A DNA stretch of 36,774 bases from a virus. Taxonomy: Duplodnaviria > Heunggongvirae > Uroviricota > Caudoviricetes. The stretch lies in the IMG/VR virus record IMGVR_UViG_2778261162_000005; one strand, written 5' to 3'. Shown in pieces: positions 8,266 to 16,200 of the stretch. The translations under genes and the position numbers were made by a program. Within the stretch, counting starts at the first letter, position 1. Each line of letters begins with the position of its first letter. The notes under the pieces were generated by a model that saw only the letters and a program-made list of their open reading frames with translations, did no database searches and was not told the origin of the DNA.

Positions 8266-10035
8266 TTAGTTGCCGTTAACAATGCTGATAACGCTGCTGC
8301 GGGCCGGCGTGGTCAGCGTGGCCATGACTTCATCCAGTGCAGCTTCCGGTACGCCGTCCGGGTACTGTGCCGTTAACTGGCGGTAATGTTCCGGCGTCCA
8401 GGTAAGGCCGTTGGCGCTGAACTTCCCGCGCAGGGCTTTCGCGGCCTCCACATGAGTCATGGGACGCTGTTCAGTGCGCGGTCCGCGTACGTCAGAGGCC
8501 TGACCTCGCTTCGGCATATAGGCCGGAAGTGTGGCGTCATCAATATGTTTATACGGGTCAAGCCGCCCGCCGAACGGCAGCGCCTTCGCCTTGCGTGCGG
8601 CAGCTGCATCTGCGGCGTTGTCTGTACCGGTGACCAGCGCTTCGGTTTCTTTTGCCGCCGTCTGTGCCGGTGTTTCCGGCAGGGCTTTGTAACTTTCGCC
8701 AAATACCGCCGCGCCTTCAGCAAAGCCAAACTCGTTCTTTCTGACCTCTTCGACCAGGAAGAACGTCTCGTGGCCGTCCTCACCGGTCAGAACCACCTGT
8801 GCCACATCGCTGCGCCACGGGTTACGGGTAATCATCAGTTTTTCACCGACCAGTACGCCCGGTACCGTTGATACGTCAAATTCAGTGCCCCGGAACGAGA
8901 CACGAAGTTTTGGCGTGACTTTGCGGAGTTCTGGTGCCGCCACAGCCAGTTCACGGCATACCTCAACGGAAGGCGCTTTTTTCAGCTGCTCAGCAGTAAT
9001 CTTCAGCCAGATATCCGTGCGGGTTTTACCGTGGCGGCTGTGAACAGCCGTGGCGTTAAAGTGGCTGCGCCATTTCGCGGCCAGCGCGTTGAGTTCTTCC
9101 AGACTGTGAACCGGCCGGAACTTCAGACCCGGCTCCAGCTTGCGTTCGATAATGTCACGCGCCTTTTCCACCTGTCCGGTGGCGCGGGCGTTATGCGGCT
9201 TGTGCGCTATCAGGTCGATGCCCAGTGAGCGACACATGTTTTTCGTCATACCCGCGGTGTTTGCCGAGCCGGGGTCGAGATAGAGTATTTTCGGCACGCC
9301 GTGCAGCACGTCTGCGCCGCCACGCTCCTGCATGGCGTTGATAAGCACAGAACACAGGTTCTCACCGGATTCCGCCCCCGTCACATACTCAACGTAAATC
9401 CAGCCGCTGGCATGGTCGGTAATCTCGTAACTCCACACGCGGTCACTGGCGATACGGGCAAGGTTAGCGGGCTTGTTCTTGTAGAACTTCGCGCTGTCCA
9501 TCACCTGCAGCCCTTTATGTCCATTGCTCAGGTAGTAAAGCGTGCAGAGTGAGGCGTCAATCTGCCAGACATGATTGGGATGCAGACTGGCCACTTCGGT
9601 ATGTGGTGCAGGGGCATCCAGTTGTTCCGGGTGCAGGCCATAGTTACGCAGGGCACGGCTGATGGCATCTTCAGACAACGGGAAAAACTCACCGGTGGTT
9701 TCATCTGTTCTGCCTGCGGTGATAAAGCCGTTAGCCCGCAGGGTTTCCACTGCATCTGCGATGGAATAGAGACGCTTACCGTTCTTGCGGGTGGCCTCAC
9801 GCAGTGTGGCAGATATCAGCGCGGCTTCGTCGCGGGTCAGGGCGCTGCGCCCGGCATCGGCGCGTTTTTTGCGTTTATCAGTCACAGAGACCTCCTTCAG
9901 CCTGCGCAGCAGAGTGGCGCGGGACATGCCAAGTTCAGCACAGGCAGCGTCGTATACTGCACCGCGTTTACCATGCCCCGCGTCACGTGCCGCGCGGGCG
10001 ACATAAACCAGTCGTTCAGTCAGGGCAGCATTCAT
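8266..10035 (-). CDS. DDE transposase (Mu A-like, rve integrase core)
   Basis: 589 aa; N-terminal HTH region; catalytic-core candidates HVWQIDAS, YLDPGSANT and GQVEKA (D, D, E); GGAGG upstream of ATG 10035. Confidence 0.8.
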   Translation of the reverse strand: MNAALTERLVYVARAARDAGHGKRGAVYDAACAELGMSRATLLRRLKEVSVTDKRKKRADAGRSALTRDEAALISATLREATRKNGKRLYSIADAVETLRANGFITAGRTDETTGEFFPLSEDAISRALRNYGLHPEQLDAPAPHTEVASLHPNHVWQIDASLCTLYYLSNGHKGLQVMDSAKFYKNKPANLARIASDRVWSYEITDHASGWIYVEYVTGAESGENLCSVLINAMQERGGADVLHGVPKILYLDPGSANTAGMTKNMCRSLGIDLIAHKPHNARATGQVEKARDIIERKLEPGLKFRPVHSLEELNALAAKWRSHFNATAVHSRHGKTRTDIWLKITAEQLKKAPSVEVCRELAVAAPELRKVTPKLRVSFRGTEFDVSTVPGVLVGEKLMITRNPWRSDVAQVVLTGEDGHETFFLVEEVRKNEFGFAEGAAVFGESYKALPETPAQTAAKETEALVTGTDNAADAAAARKAKALPFGGRLDPYKHIDDATLPAYMPKRGQASDVRGPRTEQRPMTHVEAAKALRGKFSANGLTWTPEHYRQLTAQYPDGVPEAALDEVMATLTTPARSSVISIVNGN

Positions 10036-11321: not shown

Positions 11322-11510
11322 TCAGGCTGCCTGAGCTGTTGATTTCAGCCCCAACTTCACGGCGATTTCATGGGATTTACCGTAACGGGCTTTGGTCTGC
11401 CCATTGAGAACGCGGTATACCTCATTGCGGTTGTAGCCGTTTTCTTCTGCCCAGCGGGTGAAAGTGATCCCGCGCTGGCGGAAGAGAGCTTTGACTTGTT
11501 CTGCAGTCAT
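11322..11510 (-). CDS. Ner/Cro-like small DNA-binding protein, first gene of the early operon
   Basis: 62 aa; AAGGAGA 6 nt upstream; divergent from the repressor gene, the position Ner occupies in Mu. Confidence 0.5.
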   Translation of the reverse strand: MTAEQVKALFRQRGITFTRWAEENGYNRNEVYRVLNGQTKARYGKSHEIAVKLGLKSTAQAA

Positions 11511-11610
11511 CGTTGTCTCCTTTGTTGATGCAATGATGTTTGCCTTATGTGTGATAGATTATGGTGCAGATTATCTCACCAGTCAACTTAAAGAGTGCAG
11601 AAAAACTCAC
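11511..11610. promoter_or_regulatory. Divergent early/repressor promoter-operator region
   Basis: 100-bp gap between divergent starts; contains direct repeats AGATTAT (x2) within TGATAGATTATGGTGCAGATTATCTCA. Confidence 0.45.
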
Positions 11611-11949
11611 ATGATCGGGTTACGTATTAAAGAAGAAAGAGAGCGTCTATCTCTTACACAGCAAGGGTTGGCTGATGCTATAGGTGTGGCAAAGAGAACT
11701 TTCATTGATTGGGAAAAAGATCGCACTTCTCCTACTGCAGTGCAGTTATCTGCACTATCAGAAATCGGTGTAGATATTTTGTATGTAGTTACTGGGGTGC
11801 GGAGTCAGCCTGTTGTTGCACCTTATGTGTCACAAGAAAAGAAAGAGTTAATGGATGCATTCGACGAAATGAGCCCCGAACAACGGAGGGCAATTCTTGA
11901 GGTCGGCAAAGTCTTCATTCAACCCAAACCAAGCAAACTCGCAGGCTGA
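11611..11949 (+). CDS. XRE-family HTH repressor (c-like)
   Basis: MIGLRIKEERERLSLTQQGLADAIGVAKRTFIDWEKDRTSP is a typical XRE HTH; divergent from the early operon. Confidence 0.6.
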   Translation: MIGLRIKEERERLSLTQQGLADAIGVAKRTFIDWEKDRTSPTAVQLSALSEIGVDILYVVTGVRSQPVVAPYVSQEKKELMDAFDEMSPEQRRAILEVGKVFIQPKPSKLAG

Positions 11950-12035: not shown

Positions 12036-12065
12036 CCGGAAAGCATTGTGCTTTCCGGTTTTGTT
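12036..12065 (+). terminator. Rho-independent terminator after the repressor gene
   Basis: CCGGAAAG-CATTGTG-CTTTCCGG followed by TTTTGTT, between convergent repressor and Dam genes. Confidence 0.55.
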
Positions 12066-12829
12066 CAGAAGTTGCAGATTACCAGTTCACGGCGTGGCGT
12101 GGGTTTCCCCGCCAGACTGTAGTTGATATTCACCGTCTGTATGTTCAGTTCAGTGAACACCCGACGCATCTGCGGAATGTCATTCACCGAGATAATCATC
12201 TTTCCTCTGATGCACCGTGCCAGTTCTGCGAGTAGTGTGTAGTTCTCTTCAGGAAAATCCACACCATAGCCTTCCGTCCCCAGATAGGGCGGATCACAGT
12301 AGAACAGCGTGTGCGGACGGTCATAACGCTTAATGCACTGGTGCCAGTCCATGTGTTCTATCACCGTTCTGGAAAGCCGCAGGTGTGCCGCTGACAGTTC
12401 TTCTTCAATCCGTAGCAGGTTGAAGCGTGGCGGGGAGGTGGTGGAGGTGCCGAAGCTGTGCTCTGCCACCTTGCCCCCAAACGCCTGCTTCTGGAGGTAG
12501 TAGAACCGTGCCGCACGCTGGATATCCGTCAGTGTTTCTTCCGGGGTGATCTGCAGCCATTTGTAGATCTGCCGGCTAACCAGCGCCCATTTGAATTGGC
12601 GGACAAATTCTTCCAGATGATGCTTTACTACCCGATACAGATTTACCAGTTCACCGTTGATATCGTTAATGACTTCGATCTTGCTGGGAGTCTTGAGAAA
12701 ATAAAGTGCTGCTGCGCCGCAGAATGGCTCCACATAGCAGGTATGGAGTGGGAACTGAGGCAGAATGTGTTTGGCCAGACGACGTTTTCCCCCAATCCAG
12801 GGGACGATGGGTAAAGATTGTTCTTTCAT
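12065..12829 (-). CDS. DNA N6-adenine methyltransferase, Dam-like (D12 class)
   Basis: Start at ATG 12829 (MKEQSLPIVPWIGGKRRL...); FCGAAAL AdoMet motif and DPPY catalytic motif. Confidence 0.8.
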   Translation of the reverse strand: MKEQSLPIVPWIGGKRRLAKHILPQFPLHTCYVEPFCGAAALYFLKTPSKIEVINDINGELVNLYRVVKHHLEEFVRQFKWALVSRQIYKWLQITPEETLTDIQRAARFYYLQKQAFGGKVAEHSFGTSTTSPPRFNLLRIEEELSAAHLRLSRTVIEHMDWHQCIKRYDRPHTLFYCDPPYLGTEGYGVDFPEENYTLLAELARCIRGKMIISVNDIPQMRRVFTELNIQTVNINYSLAGKPTPRRELVICNF

Positions 12830-12935
12830 TATCTGTAAGCCTTTTTCATTAGATGAAAATGCGATAGGCTTCCCTTGTTCTCGAGAACGGAAGAGCCTCG
12901 GTTGACTCACAGCTCATACCTGTAAGTTGATGACT
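12786..12935. repeat. Direct repeat copy 1 (Dam 5' end plus upstream region)
   Basis: Aligns by hand with 13419-13565; shared blocks CCAATCCA.GG.ACGATGGGTAA, TTTCAT.ATCTGTAA and CCTCGGT.G.CTCACAG..CAT.CCTGT. Confidence 0.6.
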
Positions 12936-12964
12936 CGCCTTGTGTTCGCTGCACAAGGTGAGTC
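12932..12964. promoter_or_regulatory. Imperfect palindrome upstream of P1 (hairpin or operator)
   Basis: GACTCGCCTTGTG-TTCGCTG-CACAAGGTGAGTC followed by GCTCTTTTC; GACTC/GAGTC motif occurs three times in 12903-12964. Confidence 0.4.
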
Positions 12965-13023
12965 GCTCTTTTCATGTTATTTGCATATTTCATGGGCGAC
13001 AATTAAAGGGAGTTACTAATACC

Positions 13024-13404
13024 ATGGCCCCAAAAAATATTGAGCGGTTTAATGAAATAGTTGGTGAGATATTTGGGAGACTCTACGAATCTTTCCCCGT
13101 CAAAATTGATATAAAGGCAGTTGATATCGTTAGACAGAATGAACTTACTTTTTTTCTTGATACCGTAGACTGGCTTAAAAACAGTGGCTATTTAATCGGG
13201 GCGCGTAGTTCTGGGGGGATCCACAACGCAGTGCTAACGGCTAAAGGTCTTGAGGTATTAAACGCTACGCCTGGAAGTCTGGAAAAACCGTTGGGGGCCA
13301 GAATATCTGACTCTATAAAAATTGAAGGGAAAGAAGCGTTGCGATCACTGGTTAGCCAGACTCTAGGAATAGGTCTGCAATATATGTCTCGTGGTCTTAT
13401 GTAA
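13024..13404 (+). CDS. Hypothetical protein P1 (126 aa), paralog of 13868-14272; unknown family
   Basis: ATG 13024 (MAPKNIERFNEIVGEIFGRL...); body visibly AT-rich; shares GxIFxRL, F(L/I)DTxxWL and VLTxKxLxxLNAxP motifs with P2. Confidence 0.6.
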   Translation: MAPKNIERFNEIVGEIFGRLYESFPVKIDIKAVDIVRQNELTFFLDTVDWLKNSGYLIGARSSGGIHNAVLTAKGLEVLNATPGSLEKPLGARISDSIKIEGKEALRSLVSQTLGIGLQYMSRGLM

Positions 13405-13464
13405 TATCGCAAGGCAGCGTTTGCCACCAATCCATGGAACGATGGGTAATGTCTGCGTTTTCAT
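13363..13464 (-). pseudogene. Truncated Dam 5' fragment (copy 2)
   Basis: Minus-strand ATG 13464: MKTQTLPIVPWIGGKR matches the Dam N-terminus, then the frame runs into the antisense of the P1 3' end and stops after 33 codons. Confidence 0.55.
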
Positions 13465-13565
13465 AATCTGTAAACATTTTACAATTATTAAAAATATGGC
13501 AGGCTAGTCTGGTCTCACGAGACTGACTGAACCTCGGTCGGCTCACAGTGCATTCCTGTGGGACG
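13419..13565. repeat. Direct repeat copy 2 (Dam 5' fragment plus upstream region)
   Basis: See copy 1; same orientation, immediately 3' of P1. Confidence 0.6.
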
Positions 13566-13609
13566 ATGGCCAGCCCGGCTTTCGGGTGCCGGGCTGGTCG
13601 TTCTTTCAT
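13562..13609 (-). pseudogene. Dam 5' fragment (copy 3) interrupted by a 28-bp palindrome
   Basis: Minus strand ATGAAAGAAC...CCATCGTCCC matches the Dam start, with CCAGCCCGG-CACCCGAAAG-CCGGGCTGG inserted between; on the plus strand the palindrome is followed by TCGTTCTTTC (terminator-like). Confidence 0.5.
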
Positions 13610-13653
13610 GATGCGGCAGGGATAGTGGGATTTCTGTTAATGCGGTTTAGGGA

Positions 13654-13869
13654 TTATCCGGGGTGATTTTCTGACCTTATCTGGTCCAGGGCGTAAGTGA
13701 GCCCTTCTGCAAAAACAGAAGTATCAAACTGCTTTTGTATTTCCTGAAAATGAACAGTGGCACGACAGATACTCAGTTCTCCGCGATGTAACCGGATAAT
13801 ATCTTCCAGAACATTGTTCACTGCTTCAGCACGGCGCTGATGTTCTGTTAACGTTAATCGGGGATTCAT
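13654..13869 (-). CDS. Hypothetical small protein (71 aa)
   Basis: ATG 13869 with AAGGAG 7 nt upstream; charged, helix-prone; its start overlaps the P2 start on the opposite strand. Confidence 0.35.
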   Translation of the reverse strand: MNPRLTLTEHQRRAEAVNNVLEDIIRLHRGELSICRATVHFQEIQKQFDTSVFAEGLTYALDQIRSENHPG

Positions 13870-14272
13870 GATGCACTCCTTAAATGATGATTTTTATGTA
13901 CTCACCGGCAAAATATTCTGCCGATTACTGAACACGCATCCGGTACCTCAGGTTTTGATTTATTCTGGTTTTTTCGATATCCCGGACCAGGTTGATCACG
14001 ACCAGAAAAAGTGCCGGTATTTTATTGATACGCTGATATGGCTTCGGGATAACAGCTATATTCGTTACTCTCAGTTGCTGGCTGTGGGAGCGGCTGATGT
14101 CGTCCTCACGGAAAAAACGCTCTGTCTGCTCAATGCCATGCCGACCTTTCTGCAGCCCCGGCCCGTGCCATTTAAAGAGTCGCTTCTGGATGCAGTAAAA
14201 ACCGGTGAAAATGCAGTCATCGCTGAATGCGTATCCCGGATTATGCGTTACGTGTTTAATGAACGTAAGTGA
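13868..14272 (+). CDS. Hypothetical protein P2 (134 aa), paralog of 13024-13404; unknown family
   Basis: N-termini of P1 and P2 align without gaps from the first Met (F9, G14, I16, F17), supporting this start. Confidence 0.55.
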   Translation: MMHSLNDDFYVLTGKIFCRLLNTHPVPQVLIYSGFFDIPDQVDHDQKKCRYFIDTLIWLRDNSYIRYSQLLAVGAADVVLTEKTLCLLNAMPTFLQPRPVPFKESLLDAVKTGENAVIAECVSRIMRYVFNERK

Positions 14273-14991
14273 GGTTTATCCGTTGTCTGCATAATCCCGA
14301 TAGCCAGTGCGAGGGGAAGCAATTCCGGGGAAACTTTTTCAAACAGCGATTCCCATTCTCCTCTCGCCATCACTCTGTCCAGCCCGCCCTCCAGCTGCAT
14401 TTCAGCAATCTTCCTGATTTCCCGGAACAACGCCGCTTTGATCTCTTCATGCTCAGCTTTATTTTCCGGTGTCAGAATGTATTCGTCGAAGAACCGGGGA
14501 GGCTGGTTAACGGGGATTGTGTTCACCGGGATGTGTTCCTGCTTCCCGTACTTCGGGGCCGAAAAACATTCTGTTGGCTGACCAGCGAGTTTACGTAACT
14601 CCTTCATGAGCAGCTCCTGATCGTAAACTGTCATCAGTGCCGCAATGGTGGCATGCAGTGCATCGGGCAGTATCCAGGGTTGCCGGCCCGTGGGGCATAT
14701 AACATCCAGCAGCTCATTCGTCCGACAGATACGCTCCTCGCCGTATGACAACAGGCCCTGTCCCGTGTATTCCTCCAGCCTGATCACTGTGCCAGCCCGT
14801 GGCTTCTGCCAGGTCGTCAGATCATCGCCACTCATACGGCGCTCATTCTCCACGTCAGCAGCATCGACAATGACGCTGTTTCCGAGTTCCTGTTTCACCA
14901 TCTCTTCTATCCGCGCCAGTACGTAACTTTTACCGCTGCCCACAGGACCGGACACAGTGACAGTGATGACCGGATTCAGTGTGTGCGTCAT
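14248..14991 (-). CDS. P-loop NTPase / kinase-like protein of unknown type
   Basis: 247 aa; Walker A GPVGSGKS at residues 15-22, Walker B-like VIVDAAD; C-terminal about 170 aa without recognisable motif. Confidence 0.6.
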   Translation of the reverse strand: MTHTLNPVITVTVSGPVGSGKSYVLARIEEMVKQELGNSVIVDAADVENERRMSGDDLTTWQKPRAGTVIRLEEYTGQGLLSYGEERICRTNELLDVICPTGRQPWILPDALHATIAALMTVYDQELLMKELRKLAGQPTECFSAPKYGKQEHIPVNTIPVNQPPRFFDEYILTPENKAEHEEIKAALFREIRKIAEMQLEGGLDRVMARGEWESLFEKVSPELLPLALAIGIMQTTDKPHLRSLNT

Positions 14992-15121
14992 ATCGTATTC
15001 TCCTCTGTGAATAATTCATCGTTTATCCTGCACACCCCGTATCCCCGGCTCTCTTAACGCGCTTTAAAATCCTTCGCGCCCTGTATTTGTGATGCTGTCT
15101 CCACCAGACAAGGAGACACAC

Positions 15122-15472
15122 ATGAAAAGCCTGAAAAAATTCATTCCCCCTGTTAAAAAACCTCGCCTCAGCGGCTGGCTGCTGACCTCAGTGCTGTTGC
15201 TGGGCACCATCGCTCTGGTCTCGCCACAGCAGTTGCCTGTTGTGATCTACAAGCTGGCACTCATCACGCTGGCAGCAGTGCTGGGTTACTGGCTTGACCG
15301 TTCGCTCTTCCCCAAAGCCCGTCCCGGTCAGTACCTGAAACATGACGACAGGCTGATGGCTGAAGGGCGTTTCCCTGTGCAGACCGGCCTTCACCTTGTG
15401 TTTGCTGCTGCGTTAATCCGCCGTGCACTGATTGTTGCAGCGATCTGTCTGGCTGTGGCAACAGGACTGTGA
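15122..15472 (+). CDS. Putative holin (3 predicted TM segments)
   Basis: 116 aa, GGAGA RBS; three hydrophobic helices; first gene of the lysis cassette. Confidence 0.5.
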   Translation: MKSLKKFIPPVKKPRLSGWLLTSVLLLGTIALVSPQQLPVVIYKLALITLAAVLGYWLDRSLFPKARPGQYLKHDDRLMAEGRFPVQTGLHLVFAAALIRRALIVAAICLAVATGL

Positions 15473-15474
15473 CC

Positions 15475-16200
15475 ATGAACTGGCCTCAAATCACCCTCAT
15501 TATTCTGTTCGCCTTTGGTCTGGGCGTAACCGCCATCAGACACGGAGAACCACGTAACGATAAATACAGCTTCTGGTGGCAACTTACTGGCAACCTGGTG
15601 ATTGTCTGGCTGCTCTGGTGTGGCGGCTTCTTCAGTCAGGCCCGCGCAGCGCAGCCTCCGCAGGCTGCGCTGCAGTATCGCGATGATGTGATCCGTAATG
15701 CCCGGCTTGAATGGGGACTGTCTGCGCCGGTGGCTGATTTCGCTGCGCAACTGCATCAGGAAAGCGGCTGGCGACCTGATGCGATCTCGCCGGCTGGCGC
15801 TCAGGGACTGGCGCAGTTTATGCCTGCCACTGCCGACTGGATAAGCCAGTTGATGCCGGCGCTGAGCAGTCGAGAGCCGTTTAATCCGGCATGGGCTATC
15901 CGGGCGCTGGTCAGTTATGACCGCTGGCTGTGGCAGCGCGTCAGCGCCGCCAACGACTGCGAGCGTATGGCCATGACACTGTCGGGCTATAACGGTGGTC
16001 TGGGCTGGGTACAGCGGGACAGGCAACTTGCATCACAGAAAGGGCTGGACCGTACCCGCTGGTTCGGACATGTCGCCACGGTGAATGCCGGACGCAATGC
16101 TGCCAGCTGGCGGGAGAACCGTCATTATCCCCAGCGCATCCTGTTCACGCTGGCCCCGCGTTATCTCTCATGGGGAGGGGCAAGCTGTGTGGGTACGTAA
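15475..16200 (+). CDS. Lytic transglycosylase endolysin (SLT domain) with two N-terminal TM segments
   Basis: ESGWRPDAISPAGAQGLAQFMP is the SLT catalytic signature; about 55 aa of two hydrophobic helices precede it. Confidence 0.7.
   Translation: MNWPQITLIILFAFGLGVTAIRHGEPRNDKYSFWWQLTGNLVIVWLLWCGGFFSQARAAQPPQAALQYRDDVIRNARLEWGLSAPVADFAAQLHQESGWRPDAISPAGAQGLAQFMPATADWISQLMPALSSREPFNPAWAIRALVSYDRWLWQRVSAANDCERMAMTLSGYNGGLGWVQRDRQLASQKGLDRTRWFGHVATVNAGRNAASWRENRHYPQRILFTLAPRYLSWGGASCVGT

Follow-up and report, generated by a model that had tools for sequence, protein, structure and literature searches.

The stretch of DNA analyzed here (IMG/VR virus record IMGVR_UViG_2778261162_000005; 36,774 nt, hereafter the window) is a BcepMu-like (genus Bcepmuvirus) transposable prophage, 95% identical over the region of interest to Escherichia phage PhiKM. 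On its minus strand, at positions 14248-14991, it carries a complete coding sequence (CDS) with an ATG start, whose product of 247 amino acids (aa) is the subject of this study. The product is a real, selected, cytoplasmic protein, a single-gene accessory of enterobacterial BcepMu-like transposable prophages. It is composed of a conserved N-terminal mini P-loop domain (the N-domain), a module designated M, a linker and a D-type module. As the best, though still tentative, explanation we propose that the N-domain would bind a phosphate-bearing ligand, that the modules would dock partner proteins, and that the protein may be a factor in phage-host or phage-phage conflict.

The preliminary description of this open reading frame (ORF), made from the sequence, had reported a Walker A motif, GPVGSGKS, at residues 15-22 and the segment VIVDAAD at residues 40-46, and both were found exactly there. 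A Shine-Dalgarno (SD) sequence, GAGGAG (15000-15005), lies 8 nt 5′ of the start codon, and an identical CDS in E. coli M-17 encodes the RefSeq hypothetical protein WP_000149907.1. The profile of PHROG 3787 matched the protein over its full length (E 2.4e-164; residues 1-247 on positions 1-242 of 242). The catalogue assigns no function to this PHROG, and its profile represents the E. coli architecture (N-M-D) and not the wider modular family: relatives from Salmonella, those of jumbo-phage type and free-standing ones match it through the N-domain only. Literature searches with the accessions, the PHROG identifier and BcepMu-like prophages found nothing on this family. The family is catalogued but without characterization, and what is unusual about it is the combination of a truncated P-loop domain with a combinatorial architecture.

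The extent of the N-domain (residues 1-76; 14764-14991, minus strand) was defined by an exhaustive HMMER search of 1.84 billion representative proteins, by AlphaFold2 (AF2) prediction, by conservation and by substitution rates. The search gave 54 matches, two of which were repeat-driven false positives. Beyond close E. coli relatives, the matches cover residues 1-76 only, at 33-57% identity, and the C-termini of these distant relatives are either unrelated or missing altogether, as in free-standing proteins of 73-90 aa. Residues 1-76 are therefore an autonomous mini P-loop domain. Judged by sequence pattern, it consists of a strand (8-14), the P-loop (15-22), a helix (21-39), a second strand (40-44), a second helix (45-54), a loop with W61 and P64, and a third strand (67-73).

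Conservation was counted over 144 distinct N-domains. In the Walker A motif (14926-14949), G20 and K21 are invariant, G15 is present in 142 and S22 in 140 (N in three, T in one), and the full GxxxxGK[ST] pattern is kept in 139. Further nearly invariant positions are I28 (141 of 144), the acidic E50 of the second helix (14842-14844; 139 of 144) and the W61-x-x-P64 loop motif (14800-14811; W in 142, P in 140), to which a base-stacking or structural role may be ascribed; D57 is found in 134. A bare GxxxxGK[ST] is expected by chance somewhere in the six-frame translation of 37 kb. The motif described here goes beyond chance, since its GK is invariant, the whole pattern is kept in nearly all N-domains, and the flanking strand and helix fit P-loop profiles. 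By these features (GPVGSGKS, a helix predicted from K21 and the profile matches) the protein qualifies for the P-loop superfamily.

The preliminary description had called the nucleotide-binding part unusually minimal, which agrees with a conserved domain of about 75 aa in which VIVDAAD begins merely 18 residues past the end of Walker A. To our knowledge, a 75-residue domain is about half the size of any known P-loop enzyme. The proposal that VIVDAAD (14854-14874), the second strand with its acidic end, is Walker B-like stood only in part: position 43 is acidic (D or E) in 133 of the 144 N-domains, but it is I, V, G or T in the distant group. A conserved Glu also ends the third strand, VIRLEE (residues 69-74; 14770-14787), where E occupies column 73 or 74 in 141 of 144 sequences, the three exceptions being truncated fragments or products of alignment trimming. 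In P-loop NTPases, Walker B lies on strand 3. Because of this, and because the Glu is retained where the acidic residue of VIVD is lost, VIRLEE appears to be the better Walker-B-like (hhhhE) candidate, and VIVD would correspond to strand 2. No known family aligns across either VIVD (40-43) or VIRLEE (69-74).

The N-domain corresponds to the part of a P-loop NTPase that runs from Walker A to Walker B, and the rest of the core is missing. With P-loop NTPases, among which nucleoside monophosphate (NMP) kinases and PilT/T2SSE are the nearest by sequence, it shares a hydrophobic strand, the GxxxxGKS loop and the following helix, and its third strand carries the candidate hhhhE at the usual place of Walker B. 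It differs from them in stopping after the third strand, without strands 4-5, a LID or NMP-binding domain, Asp and His boxes, a sensor or an arginine finger.

Evidence of selection came from a comparison of the window gene with the allele of E. coli LS4 and PhiKM. In the N-domain, the ratio of nonsynonymous to synonymous divergence (dN/dS) is 0.21 at dS 0.23, which points to purifying selection, whereas residues 74-137 are identical at the DNA level (dS 0); this difference in dS within one gene indicates recombinational mosaicism.

Structure predictions are consistent with a small folded unit. In the AF2 model of the full-length protein only residues ~8-72 are confident; the remainder is predicted to be helical with a predicted local distance difference test (pLDDT) value of 27-65. 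For the N-domain alone, the pLDDT reached 89.6 and the predicted template modelling score 0.77. Secondary-structure assignment reported helices 21-39 and 45-54 and no beta-strand in both models; the three hydrophobic segments might pair within the monomer or else between subunits. Foldseek found nothing in the PDB; in BFVD the single real neighbour was a viral protein of 82 aa without characterization (TM 0.69, 32% identity), which is another free-standing copy of the N-domain. These fold searches gave no structural match to any P-loop NTPase, and a complete alpha/beta core of at least five strands could not be recognized in the N-domain by fold comparison. The P-loop is genuine; of the remaining P-loop NTPase core, nothing is present or could be detected.

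The protein itself, 49 family members and the neighbouring genes were scanned against the Pfam, NCBIfam, PHROGs and PADLOC libraries, and only sub-threshold P-loop matches and PHROGs without an assigned function were obtained. The Pfam, NCBIfam and PADLOC matches point to many different P-loop families and are confined to residues ~4-56. A profile search of PDB sequences matched cytidylate kinase 1Q3T (E 7.5e-4), PilT ATPases, ABC proteins and the designed protein 6C2U (E 0.024), and all of these alignments span the strand, the P-loop and the helix only, sometimes with the second strand. Comparison by hhalign with adenylate kinase covered 34 columns at 16% probability, and with PilT 24 columns (residues 10-33) at 92.6% probability; both comparisons, made with approximate reference sequences, serve as leads and not as curated tests. 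A PilT-like protein with Walker A, Asp box and Walker B was rejected because so few columns aligned; in addition, PilT/T2SSE (PF00437) scored 12.2 bits against a cut-off of 24.9, and the series of Asp box, Walker B and His box that follows Walker A in that family was not found.

Other candidate families fared similarly. NCBIfam models of uridine and guanylate kinases scored 11-12 bits (thresholds of 180-263) over residues 7-38, and phage thymidylate kinase (phrog_761) gave an E-value of 0.16. Zeta toxin (PF06414) reached 11.9 bits against a cut-off of 22.3, over residues 11-47 only, and no co-directional gene for an epsilon-type antitoxin is present, the neighbours being the convergent PHROG 2266 ORF and the divergent holin gene. 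The ABC transporter ATPase model (PF00005) scored 12.5 bits (cut-off 25) over residues 4-49, and there is no LSGGQ-like motif; the KAP family NTPase model (PF07693) scored 14.3 bits (cut-off 20). Among the defence systems of PADLOC-DB 2.0 the best match was SngB (E 0.015; residues 13-56), and every match was restricted to the P-loop stretch. Thus, none of these groups (NMP kinases, Zeta toxins, ABC, KAP and PilT ATPases, PADLOC proteins) can claim the protein as a member. The three identities suggested beforehand, i.e. a nucleotide kinase, a Zeta-toxin-like kinase or a defence ATPase (compared with the known ones), did not survive these comparisons, as no model scored above its threshold. There was also no homology to a conserved phage deoxynucleoside monophosphate (dNMP) kinase, nor is the gene universal in related phages, being absent from Klebsiella phage KP12. 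RefSeq names given to truncated alleles – “ABC transporter ATPase” (141 and 158 aa) and “KAP family NTPase” (short fragments) – look like annotation artefacts resting on Walker A alone.

The C-terminal part had been described as 170 aa without a recognizable motif. No library indeed gives it an identity, but it resolves into two recurrent modules and a linker. The M module (residues 82-137; 14581-14748, minus strand), with the pattern ..WxLPDAxHAxxAALxxxYDQxLxxxELRK, was delimited by BLAST and jackhmmer mapping and by alignment; it is the commonest C-terminal “head” of the Salmonella relatives and is internal in the window protein. It is followed by a proline-rich, disordered linker (residues 138-172; 14476-14580; AF2 pLDDT ~30). 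The D-type module (residues 173-238; 14278-14475), with three predicted helices and the motif QLxGxxDxVxxRxxWxxxL...LL, shares its motif superfamily with modules D and D2 of the Salmonella relatives and weakly matches PHROG 25421. Neither M nor D has a relative in the PDB (profile searches), in Pfam or in other sequenced phages.

Modules were mapped by jackhmmer over ~190 family proteins, mostly from Salmonella. At least 25 architectures were distinguished, in which N always comes first and the remainder is combinatorial. The most frequent are N-C-B-M (23 proteins), N-A-B-M (22), N-B-M (20), N-B (17), N-C-B-D-D2 (13), N-B-D-D2 (12) and N-M (11); the type of the window protein, N-M-Dq, is found in nine proteins and N-Dq in two. 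Rarer E, F and G heads also occur. Within E. coli there are 182-aa variants that lack residues 52-124, and 141- and 158-aa variants that lack everything past residue ~135.

Some allelic differences were recorded in the same part of the gene. In the linker, a short direct repeat is the site of a 15-nt indel (PVNTI; 14500-14540; residues ~152-164) that distinguishes the 247-aa allele from the commoner 242-aa allele of LS4 and PhiKM. The allele of E. coli C51 has a frameshifted C-terminus, and that of CE10 is truncated after the M module.

The gene was found in 583 of 5426 complete E. coli genomes (~1 in 9), always in the chromosome, and ST131-type strains are among the carriers. A word-index homology search returned E. 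coli proteins only, which were already modular. A second search with a Salmonella-type alignment returned 253 clusters at 90% identity, all annotated as hypothetical and nearly all from Salmonella enterica, with one from Klebsiella oxytoca. In E. coli, Salmonella and Citrobacter braakii the gene is found at an equivalent position in a BcepMu-like prophage, where it is divergent from the holin/SLT cassette. In Salmonella and C. braakii the same strand carries a dam methylase gene further downstream, beyond small ORFs that vary.

The P-loop gene is accessory and not core, because the BcepMu-like Klebsiella phage KP12 lacks it while sharing the lysis cassette and Dam, E. coli CE10 carries a truncated copy with wholly different cargo, and PhiKM is the only one among 50,697 phage records with a detectable homolog. 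As judged from the evolutionary pattern, it does not serve replication, lysis or morphogenesis. Being present in about one ninth of complete E. coli genomes and in hundreds of Salmonella variants, the gene is common, yet database names for it are misleading.

Distant N-domain proteins are encoded in phage contigs of 116-243 kb, while others were found among small early-type phage ORFs beside nucleotide-metabolism genes. In the large contigs (loci L004-L007, L013 and L014 of our set), the proteins are ~200 aa long and combine the mini P-loop domain with a conserved C-terminal domain of their own (FVLEDVG.SGTLFA); the genes lie in the vicinity of many DUF7941 paralogs and a ResIII helicase gene. 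One of these homologs is labelled “EcfA2” by JGI, a label derived from the P-loop alone.

The exchange of modules behind a constant domain is a pattern typical of phage-host conflict genes, and a role as a conflict factor would, as read solely from the evolutionary pattern, be the most likely one. According to the mechanism that we propose, the N-domain, probably as a homo-oligomer that completes the sheet, would bind a nucleotide or a nucleotide-derived, phosphate-bearing ligand. The exchangeable helical modules would serve to attach it to variable partner proteins and so give the protein its specificity or target. As to the direction of the conflict, host takeover or counter-defence seems slightly the more likely to us, given that large phage contigs and groups of small phage ORFs of early type also encode this domain. 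With its constant domain and exchangeable modules, the protein is a candidate new player in phage-host conflict.

A similar logic, by analogy, may be seen in fused toxin-antitoxin defence proteins of the CapRel type, in which a constant enzymatic part is combined with a variable recognition part. The P-loop protein would resemble them in its constant N-terminal domain, its rapidly exchanged C-terminal parts and its place in a prophage cargo region, but there is no sequence or fold relation between the two. With Zeta toxin (PF06414) and the dNMP and thymidylate kinases it has only Walker A in common; it has no substrate-binding regions and no antitoxin partner, and its gene is not a core gene.

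The designed P-loop prototypes 6C2U and 6C2V offer another comparison. Like the N-domain, they are very small P-loop units, far below the size of natural NTPase domains, and they bind NTPs and polynucleotides as oligomers (bioRxiv 10.1101/2020.07.30.228619; PMC10119929; PMC7758060), which is the mode of action proposed here for the N-domain. The prototypes are laboratory constructs, whereas the N-domain is natural, under selection and equipped with the additional conserved residues E50, W61, P64 and E74. A bolder extension, which we consider quite doubtful, is that the N-domain would be a natural, free-standing “half” P-loop unit, with Walker A and a Walker-B-like Glu on three strands only, forming a working phosphate- or nucleotide-binding site only by oligomerizing. 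It would thus be a living counterpart of the beta-(P-loop)-alpha ancestors known only from design, possibly turned into the constant handle of a combinatorially varied protein in the phage arms race, e.g. as a sponge for, or a kinase acting on, nucleotide immune signals or a host defence protein. If the 75-residue domain does bind nucleotides, it would rank as the smallest P-loop unit known from nature and would bear on the origins of P-loop enzymes.

Of the alternative explanations, the one that survives best, unlikely as we hold it to be, is prophage defence or superinfection exclusion, in which the constant P-loop domain would act as a nucleotide-dependent switch or effector and the variable modules would sense proteins of invading phages. 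The location in a variable cargo region adjoining the immunity region of a temperate phage, the combinatorial C-terminal diversity and the wide carriage in E. coli all speak for such a role. However, no PADLOC model matches beyond the P-loop stretch, and since the gene is oriented away from the repressor operon and diverges from that of late lysis, its expression in the lysogen can only be presumed. Moreover, large contigs and clusters of early-type ORFs encode the N-domain by itself or joined to other tails, and such surroundings are more usual for genes of takeover or counter-defence.

A nucleic acid-binding or regulatory protein, whose P-loop would bind the phosphates of a polynucleotide and which would act on the late/lysis control region or on the downstream dam operon, seems less probable still. 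The gene does keep a fixed place next to a divergent control region that is conserved and contains a near-palindrome, and a dam gene follows downstream on its strand in E. coli, Salmonella and Citrobacter (directly so in locus L003). The family profile also matches the designed phosphate-loop protein 6C2U, and designed beta-(P-loop)-alpha prototypes bind single-stranded DNA and RNA (bioRxiv 10.1101/2020.07.30.228619). Against this, KP12 combines the same lysis cassette with Dam in the absence of the P-loop gene, CE10 has the P-loop gene without Dam, the distant homologs lie in unrelated contexts, and the library scans detected no DNA-binding motif.

It is more improbable again that the gene is a functionless remnant, i.e. 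the N-terminal fragment of a former ATPase gene left at a recombination hot spot and extended by read-through tails. Truncated and frameshifted alleles are frequent, and AF2 confidence is low over the C-terminal two thirds, and both points speak for this reading. Yet the N-domain is under purifying selection, it is kept at 35-40% identity in unrelated phage backgrounds, and the modules recur as conserved protein units from one architecture to another.

Least probable of all is a canonical small P-loop enzyme, either a nucleotide/dNMP kinase or a Zeta-toxin-like kinase: a Walker A of the GPxGSGKS type is typical of NMP kinases, cytidylate kinase 1Q3T is the best PDB match and weak matches to Zeta_toxin and thymidylate kinase exist, but these matches span only residues ~5-54 and lie below curated cut-offs, no NMP-binding or LID region, fold match or co-directional antitoxin-like partner was found, the conserved domain has 75 aa and occurs alone at 73-90 aa, and the gene is not universal among related phages.

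The local gene order places the P-loop gene at the edge of a variable cargo region that extends from the immunity region to the lysis cassette. A leftward early operon that includes the transposase gene (8266-10035) is followed by a gene for a Ner-like regulator and by that for a helix-turn-helix repressor (11458-11949, plus strand). Next come the dam methylase gene (12065-12910, minus strand), a first ORF of PHROG 2266 (12940-13404, plus strand), a 71-aa ORF of PHROG 4490 (13654-13869, minus strand) and a second ORF of PHROG 2266 (13868-14272, plus strand). On the other side of the P-loop gene, the rightward late genes begin with the holin gene (ATG at 15122), followed by those of an SLT endolysin and spanins.

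The 3′ end of the P-loop gene overlaps that of the second, convergent PHROG 2266 ORF by exactly 25 nt (14248-14272), in accordance with the ~25 nt reported initially. A toxin-antitoxin reading of this pair was not retained, as the two genes converge and do not stay paired in Salmonella, Citrobacter or E. coli CE10. The two PHROG 2266 ORFs are paralogs (28% identity, E 9e-12) and have no Pfam, NCBIfam or PADLOC match. The first is missing from PhiKM and E. coli LS4 and behaves as a cargo-region indel. The second and the 71-aa ORF, both annotated in RefSeq, diverge from start codons that have 2 nt in common, leaving no promoter space between them.

The segment between the repressor and lysis genes differs in each relative, i.e. 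in CE10 (L009, 3294-4952), KP12 (L010, 2532-4693) and C. braakii (L012, 6870-8903), and contains, for example, genes of PHROG 10002 and PHROG 12025, a gene for a DUF2441 protein and one for a small lipoprotein. This segment looks like a cargo hot spot of BcepMu-like prophages.

The P-loop gene and the holin/lysis operon share a divergent intergenic region of 130 bp (14992-15121), which is conserved across E. coli, Salmonella and Citrobacter. It had been described as a shared promoter region; the coordinates are correct, but the promoter itself is presumed, since a consensus scan of 14992-15121 found no sigma-70-like promoter. No RNA family of Rfam was detected within 12800-15600. In the middle of the region lies a near-palindrome, TTAAAGCGCGTTAA (15054-15067), which takes the form TTAAAG-GG-CTTTAA in Salmonella and Citrobacter and is a candidate binding site for a late activator or another regulator. 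An inverted repeat, TGTCTCC-N9-GGAGACA (15096-15118), spans the holin SD sequence, is conserved across genera and may influence holin translation; the RNA hairpin predicted for it (-15 kcal/mol) is unexceptional relative to shuffled sequences (z -1.5).

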